64,000 nucleotides of DNA from Candidatus Woykebacteria bacterium. GTDB lineage: Bacteria; Patescibacteriota; Microgenomatia; Woykebacterales; RBG-16-39-9b. The stretch is taken from contig JBBDPN010000002.1 in assembly GCA_040876265.1 (NCBI GenBank), positions 3,954 through 67,953 of the forward strand, given 5' to 3'. This document shows, in pieces, positions 4,403 to 61,128 of this stretch; the first letter of the stretch is position 1, and every line of letters starts with the position of its first letter. The position numbers were made by a program, and so were the translations under genes. Below the pieces are notes generated by a model. That model had not been told where the DNA came from. It saw nothing but the letters and a program-made list of their open reading frames with translations, and searched no databases.

Positions 4403-4496
4403 TCAGTTTTCAAAATATATTTGAAGTTAAGTTCATTATTTGCTAAAATCCCCTTGCTCTCTTACATCTTATATCTTAAGTCTTAGATCTAAATAG

Positions 4497-4573: not shown

Positions 4574-4649
4574 GGGCCGTTAGCTCAGTGATCAGAGCGC
4601 TGCCTTCGCATGGCAGAGGTCGTGGGTTTAAATCCCACACGGTCCACCA
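4574..4649 (+). tRNA. tRNA-Ala (anticodon CGC)
   Basis: Acceptor GGGCCGT/ACGGTCC with G3:U70. Anticodon loop is UUCGCAU. Encoded CCA. One nucleotide after the previous tRNA. Confidence 0.85.
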
Positions 4650-4831
4650 TTCGACGCGCTGCGCTTGCTCTCTTCGAGTCTGAGCCTGAGGTCTCCTCCC
4701 TCAGAGTCGAAGACATGGCAAGCCAGCAAGGAGAATGTCCTGAGCGTAGTCGAAGGACAAATTTCATAAATCTAAGATTTAAATTTTAAGATATCTTAAA
4801 TCTAAAGTCTGAGATCTGACATCTATAATTA

Positions 4832-8680: not shown

Positions 8681-8760
8681 TAGTTAGATGTAAGATGTTG
8701 GATCTAGGGTGTAAGATTTTTTTATCTTAAATCCTAAATCTTAGATCTTAAATCCAAACT

Positions 8761-10478: not shown

Positions 10479-10848
10479 TGAAATCGCAACTCAACCTTTT
10501 CTCTTAGCCGCCTTACGAGCAGCACCTCAACTTACCGGCCTTGGAATAGTCAGCGTCAAAAATTGAGGTTTTCGAGCCGACTTAAAAAGGAATTTTTCAC
10601 GTCCGATCCGCCAACTGGCGGAGAGTTTGAAAAATTAGGTGAGAAAACCGATATTTTAGCTGGAGGTTCCCGGCCGGCAGTTTTGGCTCCACCTTTGCTG
10701 TCAAAGGTGGAAAAAGAAATCTTTCCACGAATTTGACAAGCAAGCAGACTACAGGTTAAAATTAAGGGTATAAATAGGTATAATTATACCCTGCTAAGGG
10801 TACAATACGCAGGGTGTAATCCTGCGGATTATACCTTAGGACCTACCC

Positions 10849-14150: not shown

Positions 14151-14801
14151 TTAATCAAGGGTTTGATGTTTGGCAAGCTCCAAGGTTCTACCATAATCTG
14201 CTTGGTCCAAGACGAAAGATCTGTATTTATTTTTAGAAGCTCCTGGAAATAAATCCAGGGTCAATTCGGTATTCACTACACCCAAAGAATTTTTTCCTAT
14301 ATACTCCAGATACGACGACCACTCGTAGGTTGACAAATCATTAGTAAGTCCCCCTACAAGTGGGTTCAAATGAATATATCTCGAAACGTGAAGCAGTAGC
14401 TCGTCAGATTCGATTTTCACTGCTTTAAACGGCCCTTGGAACAGGTGCCCGACTCTCTTGTGTTTTGTGTTGAAATATTTTGTATAACTATTTGACAACC
14501 TGCCAATAAAAGTAGATATTCCATTTTCGGTGTTTTGCCGAAGGAGCATGTGAAAATGGTTTGGCATCAAGCAGTAAACGTAGATTTCAACCAGATTTTG
14601 AGCCGGTGTTTCGTGATCTTTTATCATTTTATGGGATTTAAAAGAAAATCTAGTTGGAACATTGGTTTTTAGATAATAAATCAAAGTATTATAAAAACGA
14701 CGATAGTCTCTTCTATCGTAAAAAATATTTCTTTTTTCTACACCCCTATTGAAAACGTGATAAATACCCCCATCTCCCAATGCTTCTTTACGATATGGCA
14801 T
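14151..14801 (-). CDS. REP-associated tyrosine transposase (RAYT) copy 2
   Basis: IYHVFNRG, YCLMPNHFHMLL (HUH), RVGHLFQGPF and YIHLNP blocks. Paralog of 1292..1981 at about 50% identity by eye. Confidence 0.75.
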   Translation of the reverse strand: MPYRKEALGDGGIYHVFNRGVEKRNIFYDRRDYRRFYNTLIYYLKTNVPTRFSFKSHKMIKDHETPAQNLVEIYVYCLMPNHFHMLLRQNTENGISTFIGRLSNSYTKYFNTKHKRVGHLFQGPFKAVKIESDELLLHVSRYIHLNPLVGGLTNDLSTYEWSSYLEYIGKNSLGVVNTELTLDLFPGASKNKYRSFVLDQADYGRTLELAKHQTLD

Positions 14802-25440: not shown

Positions 25441-27876
25441 TTACTTGACAGTAATTTGGCCTTTTTCTATGGTTACTTGTACACTGTCGCCTTTTTTGGG
25501 ACGAGTGGAGAGAATAGACTCCGATAGCGGGTCTTCAATGGTTTCTGTTATAACCCTTTGCAACTCCCTTGCACCAAACTCTTCTGAGAAACCTTTTTCG
25601 ACGAGGAAATCATAAACCTTCTTATCTACCACAAGCTTCATACCGTGTTCTTCTTTTAATCTCTTGGCAGCTTCTTTCACTAGTATCTTGGCTATCTGTT
25701 TTACGTTTTTGGTAGAAAGTGGTCGGAAAACTACAACCGAATCTAGACGATTGAGAAATTCGATCTTAAACACACGTCGGAGCTCCTCGTTTAACTTTTG
25801 GGAAATATCACGGAAACGCTCTTTCTCAGCTGCTTTTGCTGAAGAACTCGTAAACCCAACATTTCCCTCCTTCCTTATCAGGTGACTACCAACATTACTG
25901 GTCATGATAATAAGGGTATTACGGAAATTTACGTTCCTACCTTTACCATCTACCAAGTGCCCGTCGTCTAGTACTTGGAGCAAAATATTGAAAACCTCAG
26001 GGTGGGCTTTTTCTATTTCATCAAACAAAACCACGCTGTATGGTTTCCGCCGCAGTTTCTCAGTAAGCTCTCCACCTTCTTCATACCCAACGTAGCCGGG
26101 TGGAGCACCGATGAGTCGAGCTACTGTGTGGTGTTCGGAAAATTCGCTCATGTCCAGCCGGATAAAATTCTCTGGGGTGTTAAACAAAATTTCTGCTAGC
26201 CTCTGAGCGACCAGTGTCTTTCCCACCCCGCTGGTACCTAGAAAAATAAAACTGCCCGCCGGTCTGGTTGGACTACGTAGTCCAACTCTGTTTCTTCGCA
26301 GCACCCCAGCTACTTGTCTGAGCACATGATTTTGGCCAACAACCCTTGTAGCCAATTGTTTCTCAAGATCCAGAAGCCTCTGGGCTTCAGTTGTGGTGAG
26401 TTCTTCAATGGGAATTCCAGTAATTGTTGACACCACTTCGGTTATGTCTTTTTCCTCAACTACTTTTGAATAAATTTTAGAGCTGCGGTTAAGAATTTTC
26501 TGAAGTCGGTCGCTGTAGTTTTTTTCCTTTTCGCGGACATTGTCGGCTTCAAACCAAATCTCATTTTTGACAAGCTGGTCCTTTTCTGTCTTTAATTTTT
26601 CCAACTTATCGCTTATCTTGGCGGCGGTCTTACTCAAATCACCGGAGGTTACCGTTTTTTTACTCGAGGCCTCATCCAAAATATCTATCGCCGAGTCTGG
26701 CAAGTGGCGATCCACAAGATAGCGCTGAGCCAGTTTCACGGCCGCTTCAATAGCGTTTCTCCTTATCCTTACCCCGTGGTAGGACTCATATTTGTGTTTC
26801 AGACCTTCAAGTATGGAAACTGTAGTTTTGGCATCTGGTTCTTCCACATATATTGGCTGAAATCGCCTCTCAAGAGCGGCGTCCTCTTCGATATATTCAG
26901 CGTACTCTTCAGCTGTAGTAGCCCCGATACAACGCAGCTCGCCGCGAGCCAGCGTCGGTTTAAGAATATTAGCTGCATCCAGGGCTCCACCGGCTCCACC
27001 AGCTCCAACTATTGTTTGGATTTCGTCTATGAAAAGGATGACGTTGCCGCCTTCCTTAATTTCATCAATGATACCCAATAGTCGCTCTTCAAAGTCGCCT
27101 CTAAACCTAGTCCCGGCCACCAAAGCATTAATATCCAAACTAATCAAACGGGTGTCAAAAAACTTTTGAGGCACCTCTTTTTGGACGATTCTTTGAGCCA
27201 GGCCTTCGACTATTGCTGTTTTGCCAACGCCGGCGTTCCCCAGAAGTACCGGGTTGTTTTTTATCCGCCGAGAAAGCACTTGAAGTACGCGGGTGATTTC
27301 CGGCTCTCTCATCAAAACTGGGTCCAGCTCCTTCTTTCTGGCTGAATTCGTCAAATCTCTACCGTAAGTATTTAGGAGAGGGGTGGTAGGCTCTTTCACG
27401 ATCGTTGGTTGGGGTTGAATAGGAGTATAATTTTCTACTCTACCTTTGAGGCTATCGTAAGTAATGCCCCAGCTTCTTAGTATGTGGCAGGCTAAGCCAG
27501 AGGGAGTTTTGGCAAGACCACAAAGCAAATGTTCTGTACCTACGTAAGCACTGCCCCAGAGATAAGCTTGGAGCGCAGCAGTGGCAATAGCCTCTTGAGC
27601 ACTTTCTGTAAAACCTTCGTCTTTCCCATCGCTCCTTCTCTTTTCAGCAGATTCTTGCGAATCGGTCGAGGAAAGGACTGACTCCTTTATTTTTTCACCA
27701 TCTACTTGAAATGAGGCTAATACTTTGTAAGCAACAGAAGATCCATCCGCCAAAATACCCAGCAGTATGTGCTCGGTATCGACCAGCTCGGTTCCCAACG
27801 ATTTAGCTTCCTTGGCTGCTTTGCCCAGGACCTTTTTTGCTCTTTCAGTGAATTTTTCAGTGACCTTTTTTGACAT
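25441..27876 (-). CDS. clpC: ATP-dependent Clp protease ATP-binding subunit ClpC (class III AAA+)
   Basis: Clp N-domain repeats. Two AAA modules with GNAGVGKT and GTSGVGKT Walker A. Short middle domain. Length 811 aa. Confidence 0.85.
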   Translation of the reverse strand: MSKKVTEKFTERAKKVLGKAAKEAKSLGTELVDTEHILLGILADGSSVAYKVLASFQVDGEKIKESVLSSTDSQESAEKRRSDGKDEGFTESAQEAIATAALQAYLWGSAYVGTEHLLCGLAKTPSGLACHILRSWGITYDSLKGRVENYTPIQPQPTIVKEPTTPLLNTYGRDLTNSARKKELDPVLMREPEITRVLQVLSRRIKNNPVLLGNAGVGKTAIVEGLAQRIVQKEVPQKFFDTRLISLDINALVAGTRFRGDFEERLLGIIDEIKEGGNVILFIDEIQTIVGAGGAGGALDAANILKPTLARGELRCIGATTAEEYAEYIEEDAALERRFQPIYVEEPDAKTTVSILEGLKHKYESYHGVRIRRNAIEAAVKLAQRYLVDRHLPDSAIDILDEASSKKTVTSGDLSKTAAKISDKLEKLKTEKDQLVKNEIWFEADNVREKEKNYSDRLQKILNRSSKIYSKVVEEKDITEVVSTITGIPIEELTTTEAQRLLDLEKQLATRVVGQNHVLRQVAGVLRRNRVGLRSPTRPAGSFIFLGTSGVGKTLVAQRLAEILFNTPENFIRLDMSEFSEHHTVARLIGAPPGYVGYEEGGELTEKLRRKPYSVVLFDEIEKAHPEVFNILLQVLDDGHLVDGKGRNVNFRNTLIIMTSNVGSHLIRKEGNVGFTSSSAKAAEKERFRDISQKLNEELRRVFKIEFLNRLDSVVVFRPLSTKNVKQIAKILVKEAAKRLKEEHGMKLVVDKKVYDFLVEKGFSEEFGARELQRVITETIEDPLSESILSTRPKKGDSVQVTIEKGQITVK

Positions 27877-29532: not shown

Positions 29533-29777
29533 TTGAGTTAGTCGTCAGTTGTAAGTTGTAAGCAACTTAACAACTAACCCAAAACCGTTTTTCTTACAAC
29601 TTAGAAATTAAATCTTATAACTAAGTCCTGCACCCTGAAAACTGGATAGAAGTATTTTGGATCTGATGTGATCTTAGAGAACGGAGCACTATTGAAACAA
29701 AGATTTCAATAGTAGCGTAGTTCTCGCAGATCGCAACTGATCCTAAGGATCTTTTACGATCTGTTAGTACGGCTTAG

Positions 29778-32660
<2,883 letters not shown>

Positions 32661-32856
32661 CAGATAACAGTTACCAAGACGTTAACTGCTATCTGACCTT
32701 CTATCCAGTTTTTAAGGTACCATCTTAGATCAAAGATATAAGATGTTAGATGTAAGATATCTTAAAGTCTGACATCTTAAATCTGACATCCATACCTTGG
32801 CTTGCCATGAGCAAGACTTCGACGTTGAGCTCAGTCGAACCGCGCAGAGCGTCGAA

Positions 32857-32933
32857 TGGTGGACCTGGCCGGATTCGAACCGGCGACCTCTGCCTTGCAA
32901 AGGCAGCGCTCTAACCAACTGAGCCACAGGCCC
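32857..32933 (-). tRNA. tRNA-Ala (anticodon UGC) in the 16S-23S spacer
   Basis: Reverse complement GGGCCTGTGGCTCAGTTGGTTAGAGCGCTGCCTTTGCAAGGCAGAGGTCGCCGGTTCGAATCCGGCCAGGTCCACCA. G3:U70 present. Anticodon loop is UUUGCAA. Confidence 0.85.
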
Positions 32934-33241
32934 GCGCAAGCACAAGGCGCTATTCTAGCAATATTAAATTTTGGTGTCTAGAGGGAACTTTAGGTTGGAG
33001 GTGAATTACCTACGCTTCTACGAAGTGAGTAAGAAACAAATATAAGTTTTGCGTAAATCACTTGCCTAAAATCCCTCCTGTGAATGATCCTTCGACGCTG
33101 CTCAGGATCACCCCGAGCTTGCCGAAGGGTGAGAATAATTCACTCATCAACCGCAATATAGCACCAATTTGGGCTTCCGTCAAGGTAGAGACAGACCAGT
33201 TAGCACTCTTGAAAAGTGCTTTGCTAATTTTTAGCCCACGC

Positions 33242-33300
33242 TAGTGGTCGCAGCACGCAAGAGTATCTAAATAATGAGTTTCTAACGAAATTATTTAGTT
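33242..33300 (-). promoter_or_regulatory. Hairpin (CTAAATAAT..ATTATTTAG) followed by box TAYTCTTGCG..GCGACCACTA, spacer copy; boxB/boxA-like antitermination candidate
   Basis: The same two-part element recurs at 37357-37435 upstream of 16S. It lies upstream of tRNA-Ala/23S in the sense orientation. Confidence 0.4.
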
Positions 33301-33380
33301 ACGGAGCGGGTTTAGCAACAGCGCAGCACGCGGAGTAGCTGGCTTTGAGCGCTAGCGAAACGGCATAAGCTACGAGCGGG

Positions 33381-33734
33381 CTATCTGTGGCTTTCGTTGA
33401 GGATCTTCCAGTTCCAGTTTCTTTTTTTGTTGGAGCCGATTTTCTTGATGATGGCTTTTTCGAGGTCAATTTTCAATGATCCAGAAAGATGTAGTAATCG
33501 TTGGAGTACGTCGCCAAGCTCTTCTTCAAAACCACCTTTGCCTTTAATTTTTTTGTGGCGATAAGCCTCATAAGCTTCGGAGATTTCGCTGTGAAGCAAG
33601 GCTATCTTTTCCGGCACGCTTATATCTTTCCGACTTGTGCCAAAACCTTTTTCCCGGGCTTGTTCCATAACGAGTTCCGTTAATTGTTTCAGGGTAAGAT
33701 TTTTCACGAAGGTATTATATACCCGTAAATCCAA
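33381..33734 (-). CDS. MazG-like nucleoside triphosphate pyrophosphohydrolase domain protein, encoded inside the rRNA spacer
   Basis: KIALLHSEISEAYEAYR ... EELGDVLQRLLHL matches the MazG/NTP-PPase helix pair with the EExxE/ExxD metal ligands. Same strand as the rRNAs. Confidence 0.55.
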   Translation of the reverse strand: MDLRVYNTFVKNLTLKQLTELVMEQAREKGFGTSRKDISVPEKIALLHSEISEAYEAYRHKKIKGKGGFEEELGDVLQRLLHLSGSLKIDLEKAIIKKIGSNKKRNWNWKILNESHR

Positions 33735-34009
33735 TCGCGAACTTGGTCTGGATCATAAAAACTTCCATTAAGAATAAAATAATGTGTCTTGGGAAATTCA
33801 AGAATAGTGTCATTAATTAATTCAAGCTCGTTTTCTATCGAACCAAAAAAAGATTCGCAGGGTCTTACCCTGTGAGTAAAATGATACCGCCCAAGAGAGT
33901 GTATTTTGATAGTCATATGATTCTCCATGTGAGAAATTTTGGTACCCATAACTATATTATACAAATCTTATCTGACCCATTGAGTTCATCAAAAAAAAAG
34001 GGGGGGGGA

Positions 34010-34384
34010 TTAAAACAAGGTTTCGGGTTTGACCCTGTGTTTAATCAAGCATTCATTGTAAAAAGCGTTTATTTCATCTGGTGTTTTCAACCCACCTTTT
34101 AACTGGATGTAGCTATAATAATCTGTAATGCCACCAACGTTAGGTATCAATTCCGGCTCGTAAATAGCTGCATTCAAGGGTCTGTTGTCAGCAATTTTCG
34201 CTTTTTTTCTAAATTCGCTTATACAGATTTGCCTTACCTCCACTGGTCTCCATTCAAACCAATAGAAACTACCAATCAAAAATAATGTTATTGAGGCTAA
34301 AGATACTGATAAAAAGATGGTCTTAGATTTGTTCATAAATATTTTTGAAAATATGGTGGGCGCGGATGGGATAAACCGCTCCAT
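34010..34384 (-). CDS. Small membrane-anchored hypothetical protein inside the rRNA spacer
   Basis: 124-aa ORF with one N-terminal TM helix (TIFLSVSLASITLFLIGSFYWF). On the same strand as the rRNAs. No recognisable family. Confidence 0.3.
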   Translation of the reverse strand: MERFIPSAPTIFSKIFMNKSKTIFLSVSLASITLFLIGSFYWFEWRPVEVRQICISEFRKKAKIADNRPLNAAIYEPELIPNVGGITDYYSYIQLKGGLKTPDEINAFYNECLIKHRVKPETLF

Positions 34385-34501
34385 AATTCGAAACTTTCAG
34401 TTTCTTAAGTATTCCCGCGTTTTGCGACCACGCTAAGCGTGGGCTACGAACCTGGGACCCCTACATTAGACGCAACTAAAGCTGCTATCTTTTGCGATTC
34501 A

Positions 34502-34852: not shown

Positions 34853-34996
34853 CCTTCCACCAAAGTGGTGGGTGACTTAGTCTTGCCGTGAGAGCAAGAC
34901 CATAGAGCCATAAATATCGTAGCTCTGATTGCTCCTTTTGTCTCCCATACTTGGCAACCCTCCGATTTAATCGGAGTTTACCTAAATATAAAAAGA

Positions 34997-36490
<1,494 letters not shown>

Positions 36491-36864
36491 AAGATCGCTC
36501 CGTACTTCCCCACTCTTTGTAAAGGGCGGGTTCGGTACTCTCGCGTTCTGCGCTCTGCAAAGCAGAGCTTAGAAAAGTTGATCAGTTGTTCAGAATTGAC
36601 GTTCTTTTCCTACTTACATTGTCCTTGCGGCAACTGTAAGAAGGGTTCTTGCTACATGTTGAATTGTCCTCCGATTTGATCGGAGAGCAATTTGTTAAAT
36701 TGTCAAAGTGCTTGATTGGTATGTTCTCCAACGAAAAAGAGCTGGCACAAACCGAGCTCTTGCAAAGGGTCCAAATGTGCACTCAAAAATAAGTTTACAT
36801 ACCAATTCTCATTTCCGAACTCATTTTAGTTTAAAAATTATACTCTGTCAAGGGACAGCGGGTA

Positions 36865-37281
36865 TTATTTCGCCAGGTATTTCTTCTTTATCATCTTGGC
36901 CTCGTATTCGATCGATTGCTGGGGAATATTTCGCCGATATTGGTCCAAAAAGAAAGCTACCCAACCGGCGGAAATAAGGACAAAAACCAGCTCAAACGCC
37001 CGCACTCCCAAAAAATCAATTCCCTGCCACCTAAATAAACTAAATATTGCTCCCAGGCTGCCAAGAATCAGTAGCCCAACCGCTAAAGGGCGGAAGATTT
37101 TGTTTTTTGGTGGGTAGTGGCCAACCACAATTCGGTTGTAAACGAGGAACGCTATACCAAGCACGACTATTACAAAGAAGATACCCAGAAGCAATATAAG
37201 TTCGGAGATGGAACCCACACCGGGATTACGTAACCAAAATGCAAATTGTAAAAATGGTATATCTTTGATAGTGTTTAACAT
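36865..37281 (-). CDS. Small polytopic membrane protein (3-4 TM) in the rRNA operon leader
   Basis: 138-aa ORF, strongly hydrophobic throughout. Lies between the upstream hairpin/box element (37357-37435) and 16S. Confidence 0.4.
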   Translation of the reverse strand: MLNTIKDIPFLQFAFWLRNPGVGSISELILLLGIFFVIVVLGIAFLVYNRIVVGHYPPKNKIFRPLAVGLLILGSLGAIFSLFRWQGIDFLGVRAFELVFVLISAGWVAFFLDQYRRNIPQQSIEYEAKMIKKKYLAK

Positions 37282-37356: not shown

Positions 37357-37435
37357 TAGTGGTCGCGGAGCGCAAGAATACCTAAATCATCGAATTCAAC
37401 CCCGATAAAATCGGGGCCAACGAGATTATTTAGGT
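37357..37435 (-). promoter_or_regulatory. Hairpin + box element, leader copy (hairpin loop carries CCCCGATAAAATCGGGG)
   Basis: TAGTGGTCGCGGAGCGCAAGAATACCTAAATCAT...GAGATTATTTAGGTA matches the copy at 33242-33300. Confidence 0.4.
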
Positions 37436-38613
37436 ATGACGCGATCTATAGTCGCTCCACCAATAACTCTATCACCTTGGTAAAAAACTGCCGCTTGTCC
37501 CGGGGTGATCGCCCTTTCGGTCTGTTCTAACGCCACTTCTACTTCACCACTAGCCCCTTTGTGCAACTGCGCTGGAACATTTTGGGCACGGTAGCGCATC
37601 TTTACCTCTACTTTAACTGGATATTTAGGCTCCTGTCCTTGTACCCAACTAAGATCGGTTGCAGCGAATTTATCCTTGAAAAGCGCTAGGTGTCCAAAAG
37701 GCGCTACGATCAATTTATTAGTCTTTGTATCCTTACCTGCCACGTAAAAAGGTACGGAGGCAGATACACCTAGACCCTCACGCTGACCAATAGTGTAGAA
37801 GGCTAGCCCTATGTGTTTGCCTAGCACTTCTCCCTCGATACTGACAATATCACCGTGCTTTTTATTTATTTGTTGCAGTAAAAATTCTCTTATCCGTGCG
37901 GGGCCGACAAAACAAATCCCAGTACTGTCGGGTTTGCTAGCCGTGGGGAGATTAAACTTTTTGGCCAGTTGCCTGACCTTCTTCTTTGTAAGATCCCCCA
38001 GCGGAAAAATCGTTTGGGAAAGTTGTGCCTGGCCCAATAGGTAAAGGAAATAGGATTGATCCTTTGCACGATCAAATCCTGCGAGCAGTTGGTACTGCTC
38101 TAAGGATTGATCCTTGTCTTTATCGATTCCAGTCGCCAGTGACCCGTTGCCAGAATTCTGATCCCTAGTCTCTGGTGTCTGGTATCTGACGCGTGCATAG
38201 TGTCCAGTCGCTATGTAGTCAAACCCCAGCTCCAAGGCTTTTTCTAGAAACAGGCCAAATTTAATTTCCTTGTTACACATTACGTCCGGATTGGGGGTAC
38301 GACCAGCTTCGTATTCCTTATAAAAATAGTCTATAACCGTGTCGCGGTACTTCCTTTCAAAATCAAAGACGTGAAATGGGATTTCTAGCGTTGCTGCTAC
38401 TTTAGCAGCGTCTGCTTGATCCACTTCGGCGCTGCAATATGGTCCTTCGCTCCAGCAGCGCATGTACGCTCCCTCCACAGCGTAACCAGCCTTTTTCAGC
38501 AATGCAGCCGCCACAGAGCTATCCACCCCACCGCTCAAAGCTACAAGGACACGCTTCTTACTTGTGTCTTTGTGTTTATATGAAGTTCTGATTTGCCCAT
38601 TCAGTCTTGTCAT
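37426..38613 (-). CDS. mnmA: tRNA-specific 2-thiouridylase MnmA
   Basis: PP-loop VLVALSGGVDSSVAA. Conserved catalytic Cys region. Length 395 aa. Confidence 0.9.
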   Translation of the reverse strand: MTRLNGQIRTSYKHKDTSKKRVLVALSGGVDSSVAAALLKKAGYAVEGAYMRCWSEGPYCSAEVDQADAAKVAATLEIPFHVFDFERKYRDTVIDYFYKEYEAGRTPNPDVMCNKEIKFGLFLEKALELGFDYIATGHYARVRYQTPETRDQNSGNGSLATGIDKDKDQSLEQYQLLAGFDRAKDQSYFLYLLGQAQLSQTIFPLGDLTKKKVRQLAKKFNLPTASKPDSTGICFVGPARIREFLLQQINKKHGDIVSIEGEVLGKHIGLAFYTIGQREGLGVSASVPFYVAGKDTKTNKLIVAPFGHLALFKDKFAATDLSWVQGQEPKYPVKVEVKMRYRAQNVPAQLHKGASGEVEVALEQTERAITPGQAAVFYQGDRVIGGATIDRVIPK

Positions 38614-38710
38614 AAGTGACTAGTTTCTAGAGACTAGAGACCAGAAACTGATCAAGTTTAACAAAAATTAGGCCTAGAATCTAGTTGCCAGAGACTAGAG
38701 ACCAGATACT

Positions 38711-39091
38711 ATGCTAAAATATTTGACCATGAAAGAGAATAAGGGCTACAGAAATTTAAAAGCTTGGCAAAGAGCAAGTGAACTCGCGCACAAAATTTAC
38801 GATGTCACGGATAAATTCCCGCGATCAGAACTTTTTGCTCTAACCTCGCAAATGAGGCGGGCATCAGTATCAGTTCCTGCGAATATTGCAGAAGGTTACA
38901 GTAGGAAAAGTATCAAAGAAAAAAGACATTTTTATACTATTTCACTTTCTTCCTTAACAGAACTTGAATTCTACATTGATTTTACCTTCGAGAGGAAATA
39001 TTACAACCAATCCACTTACGCTAGCCTTACGGATTTGCAAACCGAAACCGCTAAGATATTAACCGGTCTGATAAATTCTTTCAGACGCTAA
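38711..39091 (+). CDS. Four-helix-bundle protein of the 23S rRNA intervening-sequence / DGR Avd family
   Basis: RASVSVPANIAEGYSRKS...FYTISLSSLTELEFYI matches the family core (S.P.NIAEG..R....F..ia.GSl.El..). Length 126 aa. Flanked by short direct and inverted AGAGACCAG repeats. Confidence 0.75.
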   Translation: MLKYLTMKENKGYRNLKAWQRASELAHKIYDVTDKFPRSELFALTSQMRRASVSVPANIAEGYSRKSIKEKRHFYTISLSSLTELEFYIDFTFERKYYNQSTYASLTDLQTETAKILTGLINSFRR

Positions 39092-39135
39092 TTGCTGGTC
39101 CCTGGAAGCTGGTCTCTAATTGCTAGCCCTTCGGG

Positions 39136-41439
39136 CTACGGCGCAACTTCACGGTAGATCACGTTTGTATCACCGGCAATATCCTGGAAAAGCCACAAGT
39201 ATTTGGGTTCGTAATTAACGACCTCAGCAGCCTGGTTAAGATTATCAGAGTCTAGATCTCTTTCAAATTTTAATGTCCCACCGCCAAACCCACCTACCAC
39301 CGCACCGTTTATCACCAACTGCTCCTCATTCCCGCCAGTACCATTAGAATCAAAATCGCCGTCAAAGATAAAGAAACCGTCCACCTCATCTACATCCGCG
39401 TCAATAATCAAATTGCCATTCACAATAAATATTATCCCCGTACCCGCTGCAATTTCCATGTTTTCCCGTATATTCATATCTCCTTTTACAAATACTACTG
39501 CTGGCAAACCATCATACCCCACCGTATTCCAAGAGGCGGCATTTATTGTCAAACTACCGCCTGAGAATTCGACAATCCTGCAATTAGCCGTGACTTTAGG
39601 TTTGATGTCTGTAGGTGCCACACCGCTAAATGATCCGCAGACATCGTATTTTGCTCTGAGGACGTCATAGATAGAGCCGCTGACTGGTTCCAAACCGCCG
39701 TAATCGTTTATCTTCCACTTTGCCACAAAGTTACCGTCAATTAGTGTGCTATCTTGTTGAATGACCAAATACTCTGCGTTAAACTCTCCTGCTCCAGCCG
39801 ATGGACTATCAAGATTTCTGGCGATCGGCCCTATTGGCCCGATAGAACCTACGTCTCCCTCCGTAGTCTTCAGCCACGGCTTCGCCGGGTTTTCTATAAC
39901 AATACTACCTTCTGGAATAGGAACGTTAGACTGGCCAAACATTAAGATAGCGCATGGTGTTAACTCAATGTTTGGCGTTATTACTCCATCACCATTCGAA
40001 TCACAATCTACATCCAGATCCCAGGTAGAAGCTATTCGAGCGTCATCAACCGGAAAGGTGTTTCCACTTTCCGTGATACATTTGCCAAAAGTTTCGTTTG
40101 TGCCGGTCGCCTCACAAAATACAGTTTTACTTGCTTGGTGGATTTGGGCTTTAAATGAGATACAAACGTTAATATCTGAACCAATTTCACTTACAGTAAT
40201 CAGAAATCCTTTATTACCGACCAAGGATTTTTTTGTATTCGGCCACGGACTTTTAGACGGGTCCAAACAGTTATAAACTTGAATATCAGCTGCAGAAGTA
40301 GCGACTATCTTTTCGAAAACATTGGGATTTACCGTATCTAATACCTGATATGAAGCAGTAGACTTTATTTCATTTGCTATCTCTTGGTAAATTTGGTTCA
40401 GCTTTGTCGGATCATCCCCAAAGTAATAGTGGTCTGGGTTATCAAGATCATTTATTGACGAGCTATTGCTGGTGTTCCAAACCATTATACAATTATCGGC
40501 TGGGTCGGGCCTTTGCTGGTCTGTTCTACAAGCAATATCCTTCAGGATCATCTCGCCGCTTGTTTGGCTGCCAGGGATATTAGGAATATCCGGACAACCA
40601 ACACAATCACTATTTATATTTTTTGTGTCATTGATTTCGTTACTTATACCAACCGTAAATATCACAATCCCATTGTCTATCGCTGTTTGTAGGATATTGT
40701 TTTGGTACGGACTGGGAGGTTCGTTTTGTACCCCATCGGAAGCTAGTACAATGTATTTATTTACGTTATCGCGAGAAGTGCTTGGAGTTGGGCTGCTGGG
40801 GGGAGGCAAAGGTGGTGGGTTTACTAAGTTTAACAATTCTTTATTAGCCAGGTCTAAACCTGAACCTATAGGTGTGTTGGTTTCAGTAACCATAGAATCA
40901 ATGGTGTTTTTTATAGCTGTCTTATTTGCTACCGTCATATTAGTTATAGGAAAGTTAAGTCTTGCACAAACACTGGCAACAAAACAGTTACCCCCAATGG
41001 TGCCTTTTAATTCTGAAAATGTAACCAGCCCGGTGTAATCTCCAGGATCAGTTAGCCCTCCATCCTCTTTCGTGTTGTCCACAAAAAGTTTCAATGCATT
41101 TTTTGCTGCAACCAGCCTAGTAGCACCAGCTGGAGGAGGGAAGGGGCTATTCATACTACCAGATTGGTCCATCACCAACATCGTATCTGCCGGGTCTCTT
41201 AACTCCTCGTTACAGCCAGGCAGTTTGATAGTTATTTCCACTATATCTCCGGGCTCTATGTCTTGCCCTATCGGTATAGATCCGACATCTTTCGTGAGCG
41301 TTGGTGAGCAACCGCCACTACCGCCTTGGGCAGACGTCCCGGTACTGTTTGTTAGGAAAAAAATTACAAGAGAGGCAAAAATAAATAATATCGTTAGCAG
41401 AAAAATTCTTAGTGTCAGCAATTTCTTTAAATTACCCAT
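39136..41439 (-). CDS. Large secreted protein with N-terminal signal peptide, von Willebrand factor A domain and C-terminal beta-helix-like region
   Basis: Signal/TM MGNLKKLLTLRIFLLTILFIFASLVIF. vWA MIDAS motif LVMDQSGSM. Thr/Gly/Asn-rich repeats downstream. Confidence 0.5.
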   Translation of the reverse strand: MGNLKKLLTLRIFLLTILFIFASLVIFFLTNSTGTSAQGGSGGCSPTLTKDVGSIPIGQDIEPGDIVEITIKLPGCNEELRDPADTMLVMDQSGSMNSPFPPPAGATRLVAAKNALKLFVDNTKEDGGLTDPGDYTGLVTFSELKGTIGGNCFVASVCARLNFPITNMTVANKTAIKNTIDSMVTETNTPIGSGLDLANKELLNLVNPPPLPPPSSPTPSTSRDNVNKYIVLASDGVQNEPPSPYQNNILQTAIDNGIVIFTVGISNEINDTKNINSDCVGCPDIPNIPGSQTSGEMILKDIACRTDQQRPDPADNCIMVWNTSNSSSINDLDNPDHYYFGDDPTKLNQIYQEIANEIKSTASYQVLDTVNPNVFEKIVATSAADIQVYNCLDPSKSPWPNTKKSLVGNKGFLITVSEIGSDINVCISFKAQIHQASKTVFCEATGTNETFGKCITESGNTFPVDDARIASTWDLDVDCDSNGDGVITPNIELTPCAILMFGQSNVPIPEGSIVIENPAKPWLKTTEGDVGSIGPIGPIARNLDSPSAGAGEFNAEYLVIQQDSTLIDGNFVAKWKINDYGGLEPVSGSIYDVLRAKYDVCGSFSGVAPTDIKPKVTANCRIVEFSGGSLTINAASWNTVGYDGLPAVVFVKGDMNIRENMEIAAGTGIIFIVNGNLIIDADVDEVDGFFIFDGDFDSNGTGGNEEQLVINGAVVGGFGGGTLKFERDLDSDNLNQAAEVVNYEPKYLWLFQDIAGDTNVIYREVAP

Positions 41440-42189: not shown

Positions 42190-42434
42190 TCTTTCGTTGC
42201 AAACCTAAAGAGCGCTCCCCGAAGCCTCGTGCGAAGGGGAGGCAGGCAACCAGCGGCAATAAATACTAATAACCGCTTTAAGTTCAATTATATTCGTGGC
42301 CACTCATCTGTGTCAACTCGTTCAGATAAAATCCGAATGTCAAAGCACAGCATCGTGCTAATTTGAAATTTTCAATTTACAATTTTCAGTGAATTTTCAA
42401 TGTTTTAAAATTTAAATTTGAATGAAAATTAAGA

Positions 42435-42474
42435 AATAAAAATTGAAATTTCTAGCCATCTTGATGGCTAGAAT
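42435..42474 (-). terminator. Rho-independent terminator (11-bp stem TTCTAGCCATC/GATGGCTAGAA followed by a U-run on the minus strand)
   Basis: Hairpin read directly. Overlaps the stop of the 42468..43052 gene. Followed on the minus strand by AUUUCAAUUUUUAUUU. Confidence 0.6.
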
Positions 42475-43052
42475 GTGGCTAATCCGAAGAAACTAAAGAT
42501 GAAATAGATAATGGTGATGGTCAAGAAAGTGCCGATGGTAATTTCGGTAATATCGTGCGCCTTTAGGTAAAACCGTGACCAAGCCACCAGAGGTAAAAGT
42601 AGGACCAAATAAAAGAGCTCCACCGATACAGCTAGTATCGCAGTGATCACCATTACCGTAACAAGCTCCATGTGAACTGAAATTTTGAAAGTAGAAGCTA
42701 AAAGTAAGTTAACCACGCCCAAAGCGAGAAATACCAACCCTAGAGCTACTATCAACCGCGGTGCCTCGAAGTAAAAAGCCGCTAGAGAAGCTACCGATGC
42801 CAGTAAAACCCAAGCGATATACGCGTTTCTTCTCTCTGCTCCCTTTGGTGACCAAAGTGAGGAAACCTTTCCTTTTTTATATTGGTAGTAAAGTACTGCG
42901 GCCGGCAGTGCCGCCACGAAAAAGGTAACTATCGCCAAAAGTACTTTTGCTGAAACTGAAATTTGCTGAACGGAAATGGCCAAGATAGCGGTAACAAAAG
43001 CAGTAAAAACCGGATTGAATATCTTTGTTACCGCAGCGGCAAAGAGGTGCAT
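42468..43052 (-). CDS. Polytopic membrane protein (about 6 TM), unknown function
   Basis: 194 aa, hydrophobic throughout. Preceded by repeat copy A. Confidence 0.45.
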   Translation of the reverse strand: MHLFAAAVTKIFNPVFTAFVTAILAISVQQISVSAKVLLAIVTFFVAALPAAVLYYQYKKGKVSSLWSPKGAERRNAYIAWVLLASVASLAAFYFEAPRLIVALGLVFLALGVVNLLLASTFKISVHMELVTVMVITAILAVSVELFYLVLLLPLVAWSRFYLKAHDITEITIGTFLTITIIYFIFSFFGLATF

Positions 43053-43072: not shown

Positions 43073-43252
43073 GCCTTACGAGCACAGCCGTCTTGGACTG
43101 GCAAAAATGCGAAGAGGAAACGGAAACTGAACCTGAGCTTGTCGAAGGTGAATTTCCGAGGAAGTCCCGAGTATGTTTGCCTCAGTTCAAAGGCTAGCGC
43201 AGTCGGCGGCCGCTTTGGTGCCACCTTTGCGGCCAAAGGTGGCAAAGAAAAT
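43073..43252. repeat. ~180-nt repeat element, copy A (conserved 55-nt block + variable middle + CCACCTTTGCGGCCAAAGGTGG hairpin)
   Basis: Near-identical 55-mer GAGGAAACGGAAACTGAACCTGAGCTTGTCGAAGGTGAATTTCCGAGGAAGTCCC and terminal hairpin are shared with 46093-46270. Confidence 0.7.
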
Positions 43253-46092: not shown

Positions 46093-46270
46093 TCGCTGTG
46101 CGAGCACGGCGTTTTTGAACTTGCTGAAAAGCAGAGAGGAAACTGGAACTGAACCTGAGCTTGTCGAAGGTGAATTCCAGAGGAAGTCCCAAAGCTTTTC
46201 AGCTTAGTCCAACAGTCAGCACAGCCCAGCGACAGTTTTGGTTCCACCTTTGCTGCCAAAGGTGGAAACA
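46093..46270. repeat. ~180-nt repeat element, copy B
   Basis: GAGGAAACTGGAACTGAACCTGAGCTTGTCGAAGGTGAATTCCAGAGGAAGTCCC ... TTTTGGTTCCACCTTTGCTGCCAAAGGTGGAAA. Immediately 5' (minus sense) of the EndoQ-like gene. Confidence 0.7.
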
Positions 46271-54762: not shown

Positions 54763-55344
54763 TCACCAGTAGCCCCAGGCCCGACAGTAGCCACTTCCGT
54801 AACCGTCCACCCCGATGGTTGGCTTGTACTGTTCCACAGTGAACCAAGCCACCTTCAAAGTGAACGTGCCGGAAGCCCAGCTGCGTTTTGACCAGAGACT
54901 CTTGAGCCAGTAGCTTCCGTTGGTAAAGTCGCTACCGCTCCAACCCCACTTCGTGGAACTGGTAACGACAGGTGCGTACCAGCTCACGATCCTACTCCCG
55001 TTGTAGGTGAAGGTCTGGCGGAGTTTGTAGGAAATGACCTTCTGCCCGTAGATGTTCTTCAGATAGAACTCCACGGTGCACGTCTTGGAGTAGGTGCTAG
55101 CCGACGTCGCAGCGGTTGCGGTTACTGCCTCGGGTAACTGACTCTCCGCAGCGGCAACCTCGCTGGCGACTATCTCTGCCTGGCCGATGAGCCTACCGTT
55201 CCTTGCGAAAACCGGCTCGCTCTTCAGCAGCCGAGACGAGGAAGCAATCGGCGTTGCTGGCTCCTGCTCATCTGCAAAGGCTGGCTGAAGGCCGGCCAAA
55301 GCTAGAGCTGCCAGTGTGATGACGATCCCTAGGGTACGTTTCAT
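54763..55344 (-). CDS. Secreted hypothetical protein (signal peptide), GC-rich
   Basis: MKRTLGIVITLAALALAGLQPAFA signal peptide. Strong SD AAGGAGG 6 nt upstream. No family recognised. Confidence 0.45.
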   Translation of the reverse strand: MKRTLGIVITLAALALAGLQPAFADEQEPATPIASSSRLLKSEPVFARNGRLIGQAEIVASEVAAAESQLPEAVTATAATSASTYSKTCTVEFYLKNIYGQKVISYKLRQTFTYNGSRIVSWYAPVVTSSTKWGWSGSDFTNGSYWLKSLWSKRSWASGTFTLKVAWFTVEQYKPTIGVDGYGSGYCRAWGYW

Positions 55345-58805: not shown

Positions 58806-58968
58806 CTAACCTCCCTCCTAAAACTTGCAAAAATTTTACCACCCTAGTCAAATTAGCAGAAGGGGGTTGAAAGTGCTAACTAGTTATGTTATAAGTTCTA
58901 TTGGAGTTTTAAGTTCTAAGTTATAAGATTTTCTACACTACTTAGATATTATAATTTACATCTAAACT

Positions 58969-61128
58969 ATGGATGGAATTCCTGAACAAACAATTGGTCC
59001 ACAAGTAGCCAAAAACCCCTTGGAGGCCTACGGCCGTGATCTTACTTCCCTAGCTAAGAACGGAAAATTGGATCCGGTTATTGGTCGTGATGGTGAGATC
59101 CGTCGGGTGATGCAAATCCTTTCCAGAAGGACGAAAAATAATCCCGTTTTGGTAGGTGAAGCTGGCGTGGGTAAAACCGCCATCGTGGAAGGTCTTGCCC
59201 AAAGAATGGTGGCCGGTGACGTGCCAGACACTTTGAAAAACAAAGAACTGGTGCAACTGGATATGGCGGCTATTGTCGCCGGAGCCGCGTTCCGCGGTGA
59301 ATTTGAAGAAAGGCTAAAGGCGGTTCTCAAAGCTGTAACTGAAGGCGACGGTAAATATATTTTATTTATCGACGAGCTGCACACCGTGGTTGGTACCGGC
59401 AAAGCTGAAGGTGCCGTAGATGCCGCCAATATCCTCAAGCCTTCTCTTGCTCGCGGCGAACTACATATGATCGGCGCTACGACAAATAAAGAGTACCGCG
59501 AGTACATAGAGCGCGACCCGGCCTTTGAACGCAGATTCCAACCGGTTTACGTGGAGCAGCCTAGTGTCGAAGACACTGTCGCTATATTGCGTGGTTTAAA
59601 GGAGCGCTACGAGGTCCACCACGGAGTAAGGATCACCGACGCAGCGATCATTGCCGCGGCAGGGCTTTCCGCTCGTTATATTTCTGGTCGTTTTCTGCCA
59701 GACAAAGCAGTTGACCTCATCGACGAAGCCACATCTTCTCTAAAAATGGAAGTAGAATCTATGCCGGTAGAACTCGACAGCCTTAAGAGAAACGTTTTGC
59801 AACTAGAAATTGAGCAACAAGCCTTAAAAAAGGAAAAGGACTCATCCAGTCGGGAACGTCTACAAAATCTCGAGAAAGAGTTAAAGAGCAAAAAGCAAAA
59901 ATTTGATGATCTTGAGGCACAATGGAAAAAAGAAAAAGACGCTATCGGTAAGCTACAATCTATCAGTTCTGAACTCGAAAAAAACAAAATCGCTCTTGAA
60001 ACAGCTGAAAGAGACGCAGATTTAAACCGGGCAGCGGAGATCAAATTTGGTAAAATTCCACAGCTTAAAGAAAAAATTAAAGAGGCAAATAAAGCTCTTC
60101 AGCAAGTAACAGATGGCAGTCCTGCCCTACTGCGAGAAGAAGTAACGGCGGAAGATATTGCCAAAGTTGTCTCCCTTTGGACAGGTATTCCTGTTGCCCG
60201 GCTACTAGAAGGAGAAGCAGCAAAACTCTCCAAAATGGAAGAGGAACTTCACGCTCGTATGGTGGATCAAGACGAGGCGATCAAATCGGTTGCCAACGCT
60301 ATCCGCCGCCACCGGGCTGGAGTAAGTGAAGAAAGCAAACCAATCGGTAGTTTTATTTTCTTTGGACCAACTGGTGTCGGTAAAACAGAATTGGCCAGAT
60401 CTTTAGCTGATTTTCTATTTAATGACGAGCACGCTATGGTGCGCATCGATATGAGTGAGTATATGGAACAGCACACTGTGGCCAGACTCATCGGTGCGCC
60501 GCCAGGATACATTGGTTTTGAGGAAGGTGGGCAGCTGACAGAAGCGGTGCGGAGAAAACCCTACAGCGTGATACTTTTTGATGAACTAGAAAAAGCCCAT
60601 CGAGACGTTTTCAATCTCCTACTTCAAGTGCTAGAACCTGGAAGATTGACTGATGGACGTGGTAGAACCGTAGATTTTCGAAACAGTGTAATTATTATGA
60701 CCAGTAATTTAGGAAGCGAGATAATTCAAAAATATGAAGGGAAAACCCCGGGGGTAATGAAAGAAGAGCTTATAGGGCTGGTGAGGAAATCTTTTCGACC
60801 AGAATTCCTCAACCGAGTGGATGAAATTGTCGTGTTTAATCCTCTTGGCGAGAAGGAAATAAGACAAATTACTGGTTTACAATTAAACAAAGTTATAAGC
60901 CGTTTCAAGGAAAAAGGGATCACTCTCAAAATTTCTGACGAGGTGGCATTAAAAATAGCCAAAGAAGGCTTTGATCCTGTTTGGGGTGCCCGCCCATTAA
61001 AGCGAGTCGTACAAAACCAGCTTCTGGACGAACTTTCAATGCAGATTGTGGAAGGTGGAATCAAGGGCGGCGATACGGTGACCGTCGCCCTTGATAATGG
61101 CAGGATCGTGTTTAGCAGATCCGGCTAA
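58969..61128 (+). CDS. clpB: ClpB-type disaggregase lacking the N-terminal domain
   Basis: Two AAA modules ([16 protein letters not shown]) separated by a long coiled-coil M-domain ([20 protein letters not shown]...). Starts directly at the NBD1 linker. Length 719 aa. Confidence 0.85.

Follow-up and report, generated by a model that had tools for sequence, protein, structure and literature searches.

The closest described relative of the locus treated here is the intervening sequence (IVS) of the Coxiella burnetii 23S rRNA gene, which contains an S23p open reading frame (ORF) with three to four GACAGAT heptamers just before its ATG, in a number that varies among strains, and which is closed by a 28-bp terminal stem that is cleaved by RNase III (PMC4990558). 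Earlier suggestions that such IVSs are mobile elements lacked evidence (PMC4990558, discussion). A second relative is XCC0516 (PDB 2GSC), which is a homopentameric toroid (PMC4990558) deposited with five chains, and whose gene has its start codon overlapped by an array of four GGGAATC units (PMC4692102, supplement). A third is the accessory variability determinant (Avd) of diversity-generating retroelements (DGRs), a pentameric barrel in which all five protomers contact one RNA stem-loop through the same residues (bioRxiv 10.1101/2023.10.23.563531). Here we describe a locus in a 64,000-nucleotide stretch of contig JBBDPN010000002.1 of a Candidatus Woykebacteria bacterium (the window), in which one stand-alone gene of this protein family, the four-helix-bundle (4HB) gene, stands between inverted arrays of tandem heptamers. 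Together they make up a cassette of about 510 bp (38620-39126) inserted between a gene for a von Willebrand factor A (vWA) domain protein and then mnmA, both on the minus strand. We consider it probable that the locus is a mobile cassette of small size, that its ends pair into a stem once transcribed, and that this stem is probably cut by RNase III; the protein of the cassette is under purifying selection.

Heptamer repeats have a literature of their own. The short tandemly repeated repetitive (STRR) sequences of cyanobacteria are intergenic heptamer simple-sequence repeats. Intergenic TAACTGA heptamers occur in Beggiatoaceae and cyanobacteria (PMC4679880), and Xanthomonas has about 186 GGGAATC arrays, 70-75 of them as convergent inverted pairs able to form stem-loops (PMC4692102). 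The Xanthomonas and Beggiatoaceae repeats resemble those of the window in being tandem 7-nt units, typically about four per array, placed intergenically near gene ends; they differ in being mostly ORF-less, and neither PMC4692102 nor PMC4679880 draws a link to PF05635 genes, the Beggiatoa repeat tables containing no mention of S23p-type genes. Our literature search, outside of which lay the older subscription papers, returned only the Coxiella IVS as a case in which a PF05635 gene had been connected with heptamer arrays. As far as the literature was searched, the architecture has so far been described for just this one rRNA-resident case.

Inverted heptamer arrays around a four-helix-bundle gene

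The repeats that flank the 4HB gene are tandem heptamer arrays with the unit consensus C[CT]AGNNN: two arrays stand upstream, separated by a short spacer, and an inverted array follows immediately downstream (Table 1). The preliminary description, made from the letters of the window, had recorded two direct repeats of 29 nt upstream and an inverted partial copy downstream. Both are real, with small corrections: the direct repeats are 30 nt long, 90% identical and 61 nt apart, the first at 38620-38649 and the second at 38681-38710, about 9 nt from where it had been placed, and the downstream copy (CTGGTCTCT) is at 39109-39117, off by 1 nt. They are better described as tandem heptamer arrays in the C[CT]AG register. 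Inverted repeats I3, I4, I7 and I10 bracket the 4HB ORF, and the sequence AGAGACCAG occurs three times in 64 kb, each time at the cassette (0.49 expected; 2 of 100 shuffles reach three). BLAST of the cassette flanks found no further copies of the C[CT]AG arrays in the window. The second upstream array ends 2 nt ahead of the ATG at 38711, and 20 nt separate it from the conserved start at 38729; the first is the reverse complement of the mnmA 5′ leader, which falls within the cassette. The spacer may be the cassette's own promoter region. Its motif TAACAAAAATTAGG is found at the same position in the related locus L002; a consensus scan for a promoter or terminator of the cassette gave two promoter-like sites against 1.3 expected and no terminators, and since the number of sites is not above chance the promoter scan is uninformative.

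When the region 38610-39140 is folded as RNA, the outermost helix of both the minimum-free-energy and the centroid structure joins the first upstream array, as the 5′ arm, to the downstream array, as the 3′ arm, and encloses the whole ORF. The predicted duplex with the downstream array has an energy of -30.8 kcal/mol for the first upstream array and -33.5 kcal/mol for the second, and the fold as a whole has a z of -2.8 against shuffles. In silico, a terminal stem of about 22-26 bp closes around the ORF on either strand. The vWA gene ends in a conserved ...REVAP*, 9 nt past the downstream array, and its stop codon (CTA at 39136-39138 of the plus strand) is overlapped by a short G+C hairpin that is not conserved in L002.

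The gene itself had been read as an Avd/23S-IVS-type four-helix bundle lying between mnmA and a convergent vWA gene, and both parts of that reading hold. The ORF runs from 38711 to 39091 on the plus strand (126 aa), 44 nt from the vWA gene, which is convergent with it; since both neighbours are on the minus strand, the 4HB gene is antisense to a co-directional vWA-mnmA pair. Its homologues (an alignment with 32 of them) favour the second start, at ATG 38729 (MKENKGYRNL..., 120 aa), as does the NCBI annotation of an identical 120-aa protein (P0002), which bears the name 'four helix bundle protein [Candidatus Woykebacteria bacterium]' and lies on a contig of 302 kb. A search with tblastn matched no other copy of the gene in the 64-kb window. 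The protein scores 118.4 bits with PF05635 (cutoff 33.8), covering profile positions 1-106 of 106, and 112.8 bits with TIGR02436 (cutoff 24); the bAvd family PF22296 matches more weakly (43.4 bits), and 2GSC matches with an E-value of 1.2e-17. Seventeen residues are invariant against the 32 homologues, including the core SQMRR...S...N..EG. It is an ordinary, well-conserved member of a very large and already annotated family.

An AlphaFold2 monomer model (pLDDT 95.6) has its main helices at residues 11-27, 32-57, 62-88 and 94-116. In Foldseek comparisons the model is closest to the pentameric XCC0516 (2GSC; TM score 0.94, root-mean-square deviation 0.9, 34% identity), followed by BT_0352 (2RLD; TM score 0.81), and its match to Avd (4DWL) has a TM score of 0.78 with 13% identity. 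XCC0516 and BT_0352 share family and fold with the 4HB protein, and XCC0516 shares with it a heptamer array at the start codon, although the unit is GGGAATC in Xanthomonas and C[CT]AGNNN in the window. By analogy with Avd and with the five chains of 2GSC, the 4HB protein presumably forms a homopentameric ring. A dN/dS of about 0.07-0.09 (about 0.07 against L002 and L013), at a dS near saturation, points to strong purifying selection on the protein.

The likeness to the Coxiella IVS is close. In both, a single PF05635 ORF lies within terminal inverted repeats that form a long stem, tandem heptamers stand immediately upstream of the start codon, and the Shine-Dalgarno sequence is poor or absent. 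The two differ in their surroundings, in the state of the ORF and in detail. Whereas an IVS is sited in a 23S helix (helix 9, 25 or 45) and transcribed with the pre-23S rRNA, the cassette at 38620-39126 is outside the 23S gene and between protein-coding genes; the 23S gene of the window is 2913 nt long and matches the 2925-position Rfam model from end to end (1-2925), and it therefore has no ORF-sized insertion. For the Coxiella ORF, decay and a lack of translation are reported, whereas the window ORF is under purifying selection. Finally, the window has two upstream arrays with a spacer, and RNase III cleavage there is a prediction.

The same design at other junctions and in other genomes

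The junction between vWA and mnmA was compared among relatives located through mnmA. The 4HB gene is antisense to its neighbours in the window and in L002, L013 and L014, while L001 has a 75%-identical 4HB gene in sense orientation at the same junction. Three further relatives retain something else: L103 has a 32%-identical 4HB paralogue with ATCC-type units, L102 an ORF-less 23-bp hairpin of GGATNNN and NNNATCC heptamers (-35.5 kcal/mol, z -3.3), and L101 a solo array of four AATTTTC units. The cassette is lacking in L105, which has an unrelated 590-nt insert at the junction, and in L106, where a rhodanese gene lies directly upstream of mnmA and neither vWA nor 4HB is found; L104 has no 4HB gene upstream of mnmA, and its contig ends before any vWA gene. 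Orthologous junctions thus have the cassette in one orientation or the other, lack it, or retain a reduced form of it, a hairpin without an ORF. Inversion in situ and re-insertion are inseparable as causes of the flipped state in L001, because the polarity of the arrays is equal in both scenarios. At 2630-2720 of L105, its junction has three tandem copies of a unit of about 30 nt (GATCGCTACGCGCTCTGCGCCGATGGCTAA) together with a small membrane ORF.

A clearer record of insertion is a phage junction at which gp146 (a 146-aa gene) adjoins the gene of the major tail protein. In 76 of 79 loci the two genes are separated by a gap of about 12 nt that holds a Shine-Dalgarno sequence only and no array, and some of these empty loci encode a tail protein with 93-94% identity to the one of an occupied locus. 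The other three loci have an insert of 441-484 nt, an antisense 4HB gene with an array on each side, and then, ahead of the tail gene, a new AGGAG. There are two variants of the insert, which differ in their heptamers and whose proteins are 66% identical. Since the empty junctions have no arrays and the insert carries both, the arrays arrive with the gene and do not pre-exist at the target. In several loci, two to three 4HB copies are found within 6 kb.

Some host genes next to a cassette seem to be altered at their ends. In L004, L005 and L015, where the neighbours are Wzy_C-TPR and SHMT genes, the Wzy_C-TPR ORF has the upstream heptamers within its 3′ end, and its stop is overlapped by the 4HB start; here the C-terminus of the host protein seems to be encoded by what was cassette sequence. 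The C-terminus of phage gp146 in L196 is similarly altered, from ...VKA* to ...VRL*.

Among the loci of the close homologues (which include L001-L020), every one examined has NNNCCAG or CTAG-type heptamers upstream and CTGGNNN downstream, and these arrays persist despite differing neighbours: mnmA/vWA, Wzy_C/SHMT, NYN/PGI and pilin genes. A wider sample from GTDB, drawn from among the matches listed, comprises 80 loci (82 genes) of 38-51% identity from many phyla. These are laid out alike with other units, such as GGCAATA, GTGACAA, GAAATAG, GTAAGTA and GGGGCTA, and with 8-mers such as AGCCACGA; the unit differs by lineage, but at every locus the array after the gene reads as the reverse complement of the array before it. 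Strict arrays of period 7 or 8 are found in the flanks of 34 of the 82 genes, compared with 15 of 719 control segments taken 0.7-2 kb away, and the flank arrays have periods of 7 or 8 only, save for one case of period 10. Counted by intergenic gap, a period-7 array is present in 23 of 75 gaps next to a 4HB gene, in 7 of 124 other gaps of the same loci and in 3 of 221 gaps of unrelated loci. The arrays of the family mostly have three to five units; the median distance to the start codon is 18 nt for upstream arrays, and that from the stop codon is 5 nt for downstream ones. The two ends of a locus are matched to each other as well: flank duplexes reach z < -3 against shuffles in 43% of the 82 genes, and for 20 of 81 genes, against about one expected, the upstream flank finds its best partner among 81 downstream flanks in the one of the same gene. 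On viral contigs, nearly all of 15 homologues have inverted arrays or strongly complementary flanks.

The flanking repeats are not incidental to the 4HB gene, and going by the sequences compared, the IVS-type cassette architecture seems to be general for the PF05635 family. This also bears on the idea, raised in the preliminary description, that the locus is a relocated IVS cassette. That idea finds support in the architecture only. The 23S gene of the window has no large insertion, members with the same kind of flanks sit between ordinary genes in many phyla and in phages, and the intergenic form therefore looks like the common state and not like a displaced IVS.

Several observations weigh against the reading of the locus as a mobile cassette with a processed stem. 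Only about 40% of family members meet the strict thresholds for arrays or stems, the window arrays are degenerate (four of seven positions conserved), and the cassette fold beats shuffles only moderately. One of two 4HB copies in the Daviesbacteria locus L276 (1376-1732, minus strand) has TTAGGG-like arrays that are direct on both sides and not inverted; the second, 1.3 kb away among type IV secretion system (T4SS)-pilin genes, has the usual inverted arrays. The cassette encodes no nuclease, and no transposase, recombinase or reverse transcriptase (RT) was found within it or next to it; nor is a target-site duplication evident when the occupied phage locus L196 is compared with the empty L199-L201, although a short one could be hidden because the junction sequences are 6-7% diverged. 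Mobility is accordingly read only from the patterns of presence and absence. RNase III cleavage of copies outside rRNA is likewise a matter of prediction, and across 34 loci stem energies and G-U counts have no sense/antisense asymmetry (17 each way, p = 0.89), which leaves no specific support for selection at the RNA level over the DNA level; a DNA-level role for the inverted arrays is possible. Lastly, because solo arrays are found at other intergenic sites of the window, the arrays could be a general genomic feature that happens to lie beside 4HB genes.

Competing explanations and other repeats of the window

The main rival is that the 4HB gene is a resident, vertically inherited host gene, and that its arrays are cis-regulatory elements, either 5′-leader repeats for translation control or operators for the 4HB protein, which are shared with other genes. 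We find this plausible and, on balance, rather unlikely. Its plausibility comes from the solo heptamer arrays found elsewhere in the window, upstream of other genes and in the rRNA spacers (Table 1), and from the fact that 7 is the sole tandem period detected in the 64 kb. A resident gene would also suit the strong purifying selection, the fact that four or more related genomes keep the gene at this junction, with a 4HB identity that broadly follows mnmA identity, and the position of the upstream arrays, which end near the start codon as do intergenic heptamer arrays of Beggiatoaceae and Xanthomonas, which end just before start codons (PMC4679880; PMC4692102). Vertical descent is, however, hard to square with the relatives L101 and L102, which are as close to the window as L001 or closer and have no ORF at the junction, with L103, whose gene is a 32%-identical paralogue, and with an orientation that varies among relatives. 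The phage junctions also speak against it, with 76 of 79 empty and an insert that brings both arrays, and a 5′-leader element alone leaves the reverse-complement arrays downstream unexplained.

The solo arrays of the window have units that are ATCTTAN-like or GTTGTAA, AATTTTC and TAAGTTN, of which AATTTTC is also the unit of the array at the junction of L101. We considered whether the two arrays that flank the 23S gene (29535-29564 and 32726-32761) form a complementary pair; this was rejected, as they are not complementary by eye. Within mnmA, the coding region at 38161-38189 contains a heptamer-periodic stretch, CTAGTCT CTGGTGT CTGGTAT, in a QTPETRDQNSGNGS segment that splits the Pfam HUP-domain match. 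This stretch may be an in-frame remnant of array sequence.

It has also to be asked whether the locus is an invertible DNA switch, in which recombination at the inverted arrays flips the segment and so alters the expression of mnmA, vWA or 4HB in the manner of phase variation. The segment is bracketed by inverted repeats, the mnmA leader lies inside it, and L001 has the opposite orientation with a 75%-identical protein at the same junction. That difference, however, is one between species and not within a population, both contigs of the same species being in one orientation, and the phage loci record the insertion of a whole cassette. Heptamer arrays would moreover make poor sites for specific recombination, and no recombinase was found nearby in a Pfam scan of 35 window ORFs, which took in most of those of at least about 190 aa as well as the 4HB ORF and a 138-aa ORF at 36865-37281 (two ORFs of about 190 aa, at 42468-43052 and 54763-55344, were outside it). 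A switch of this kind is therefore very unlikely.

Still less probable is a degraded or trans-acting DGR, in which the 4HB protein would be an Avd, the RT would be encoded elsewhere and the adjacent vWA protein would be diversified. DGRs are common in Patescibacteria, the Avd fold is shared (PF22296 at 43 bits; TM score 0.78 to 4DWL), and the DNA inspected amounts to 64 kb, from a contig no shorter than 302 kb. The preliminary description had raised such a remnant as an alternative, with the vWA protein as a possible target, and had seen no RT in the window. The latter was borne out, with zero RVT-family Pfam matches among the 35 ORFs scanned, and none of the loci of close homologues L001-L020, L276 and L277 has an RT beside the gene; the proposal itself was rejected. 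A self-BLAST of the window (word size 9, E <= 1e-3) for a pair of template and variable repeats gave no match in 39136-39500 or elsewhere in the vWA gene, and thus no second copy of its 3′ end in the window. The 4HB protein scores 30.4 bits with the NCBIfam equivalog for DGR Avd (NF033474), for which the cutoff is 80, and is much nearer to the stand-alone 2GSC and 2RLD than to Avd (34% against 13% identity); with the DGR Avd structures (PDB 4DWL, 8UB7) it shares a homologous fold, without the RT, the template and variable repeats or the variable target in the window. In the vWA protein, Pfam detected only VWA domains (residues 86-271) and no lectin-type or Ig-type variable domain, its REVAP* end is kept in relatives, and it is 100% identical over 767 aa in an independent contig from another sample (L012), where a diversified target would be expected to vary. 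Nothing in the DNA inspected points to a distant RT. The cassette is not a DGR component, and the idea should be dropped.

That the repeats are chance or low-complexity sequence around an ordinary orphan gene, with no functional link, is scarcely credible: the window arrays are short and degenerate, and the count of AGAGACCAG alone is modestly significant, but the architecture recurs at homologues across unrelated gene contexts and phyla, the enrichment is confined to periods 7 and 8, and the ends of a locus are specifically complementary, all of which already contradicts it.

Among mobile elements, the mobile cassette that we favour resembles miniature inverted-repeat transposable elements with their insertion sequences, and the REPIN-RAYT system, in being a short intergenic unit bounded by inverted repeats and having ORF-less derivatives (L102); it differs from them in having no transposase and no visible target-site duplication (phage junction). 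The window does contain two ORFs like REP-associated tyrosine transposases (RAYTs), more than 20 kb from the cassette, and nothing ties them to it. The first of these, at 1292-2050, is flanked by an exact 25-nt repeat (1259-1283 = 1996-2020) and overlaps a 54-nt palindrome (1997-2047).

Other features of the window are recorded here for completeness. The rRNA operon has an unusual 1.5-kb insert at 32934-34501, between the tRNA-Ala(TGC) and tRNA-Ile(GAT) genes, with two small ORFs (Table 1). An inverted duplication (4574-4827 and 32730-32933) comprises a tRNA-Ala gene and its flank, including a heptamer-array region, and the window has three tRNA-Ala genes in all (GGC, CGC and TGC). A dispersed intergenic repeat family is found at 46101-46268 and 43079-43245 (168 nt, 77% identity), with a core of 39-46 nt also at 10675-10720. 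Two ClpB/ClpA-type AAA+ paralogues, at 25441-27876 (minus strand) and 58969-61128 (plus strand), share a 271-nt stretch with 72% identity, and the second has no Clp_N domain.

Table 1. Coordinates of the cassette, its neighbours and further features of the 64-kb window
Feature	Position	Strand	Details
Upstream heptamer array 1	38620..38647	+	4 units: CTAGTTT CTAGAGA CTAGAGA CCAGAAA; 7 nt from mnmA start codon (opposite strand)
Spacer between the two upstream arrays	38648..38673	+	26 nt (CTGATCAAGTTTAACAAAAATTAGGC)
Upstream heptamer array 2	38674..38708	+	5 units: CTAGAAT CTAGTTG CCAGAGA CTAGAGA CCAGATA
4HB gene	38729..39091 (in-frame upstream ATG 38711)	+	stand-alone 'S23p / 23S-IVS protein' family
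Downstream heptamer array, inverted	39092..39126	+	5 units: TTGCTGG TCCCTGG AAGCTGG TCTCTAA TTGCTAG
Short G+C hairpin	39124..39138	.	TAGCCC TTC GGGCTA; read from sequence; spans last array unit and vWA stop codon
mnmA (tRNA 2-thiouridylase)	37426..38613	-	tRNA_Me_trans 256 bits; one host-gene side of the insertion junction
vWA-domain surface protein gene	39136..41439	-	767 aa; other host-gene side of the junction
16S rRNA	34996-36492	-	2.2 kb from cassette
23S rRNA	29743-32655	-	6 kb from cassette
Solo tandem heptamer arrays	4458-4490, 8720-8758, 29535-29564, 32726-32761, 42358-42390, 58900-58932		intergenic, including both 23S-flanking spacers
ORF in rRNA-operon insert	33381-33734	-	117 aa; weak MazG-like NTP pyrophosphohydrolase match
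ORF in rRNA-operon insert	34010-34384	-	124 aa; probable membrane segment
Y1_Tnp / REP-associated tyrosine transposase-like ORFs	1292-2050, 14151-14801	-	Pfam 38-40 bits, partial; NCBIfam 34-54 bits, cutoff 80

A possible mechanism and its meaning for intervening sequences

In the mechanism that we propose for the mobile cassette, a small mobile element, either selfish or domesticated, would insert between the stop codon of one gene and the start of the next. Transcripts that cross the cassette, on either strand, would fold the arrays into a stem of at least 20 bp, which RNase III would then cut as it does the Coxiella IVS. Such a cut would separate the insert from the host operon message or from the rRNA, and would thereby let the unit be tolerated in operons, in phage late regions and even in 23S rRNA. 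The tandem nature of the arms would allow them to pair in several registers. Since a design of this kind could survive inside a 23S helix, the ORF-bearing IVSs would presumably be the rRNA-resident cases of the element. The 4HB protein, by analogy with the Avd pentamer on its RNA stem-loop, probably binds structured nucleic acid, possibly the repeat stem of its own cassette.

We also offer, tentatively and as a possibility that is doubtful when taken as a whole, a broader joint reading. It holds that 4HB genes with inverted heptamer arrays would be one widespread kind of small mobile cassette, which has gone unrecognised and occurs in bacteria, Patescibacteria and phages, and of which the ORF-bearing 23S IVSs are rRNA-resident copies; that the pentameric ring would bind the stem of three to five units with about one unit per protomer, and that this binding would drive or regulate propagation or processing; and that ORF-less hairpins and arrays, such as GGGAATC in Xanthomonas, the heptamers of cyanobacteria and Beggiatoa, the hairpin of L102 and the solo arrays of the window, would be non-autonomous derivatives.

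The nature of the 23S intervening sequences, and the role of the ORF conserved in them, have been unclear since 1990. The comparison made here shows the IVS design, with its 4HB ORF inside a stem built of inverted heptamer arrays, to be common beyond rRNA; at gene junctions, among them those of phage structural operons, it acts as a discrete insertion, and it leaves ORF-less heptamer hairpins behind. The vague idea of IVSs as mobile elements could thereby become testable, through the processing of the stem, the binding of the pentamer to heptamers and the comparison of occupied with empty sites, and the unexplained intergenic heptamer repeats of several bacterial groups would gain a possible origin. 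For annotation there is a warning, as stand-alone Avd-like genes in Patescibacteria should not automatically be taken for DGR remnants. What makes the finding worthwhile is not so much this one locus as the testable link that it draws between 23S IVSs, S23p-type proteins and the heptamer repeats of bacteria.

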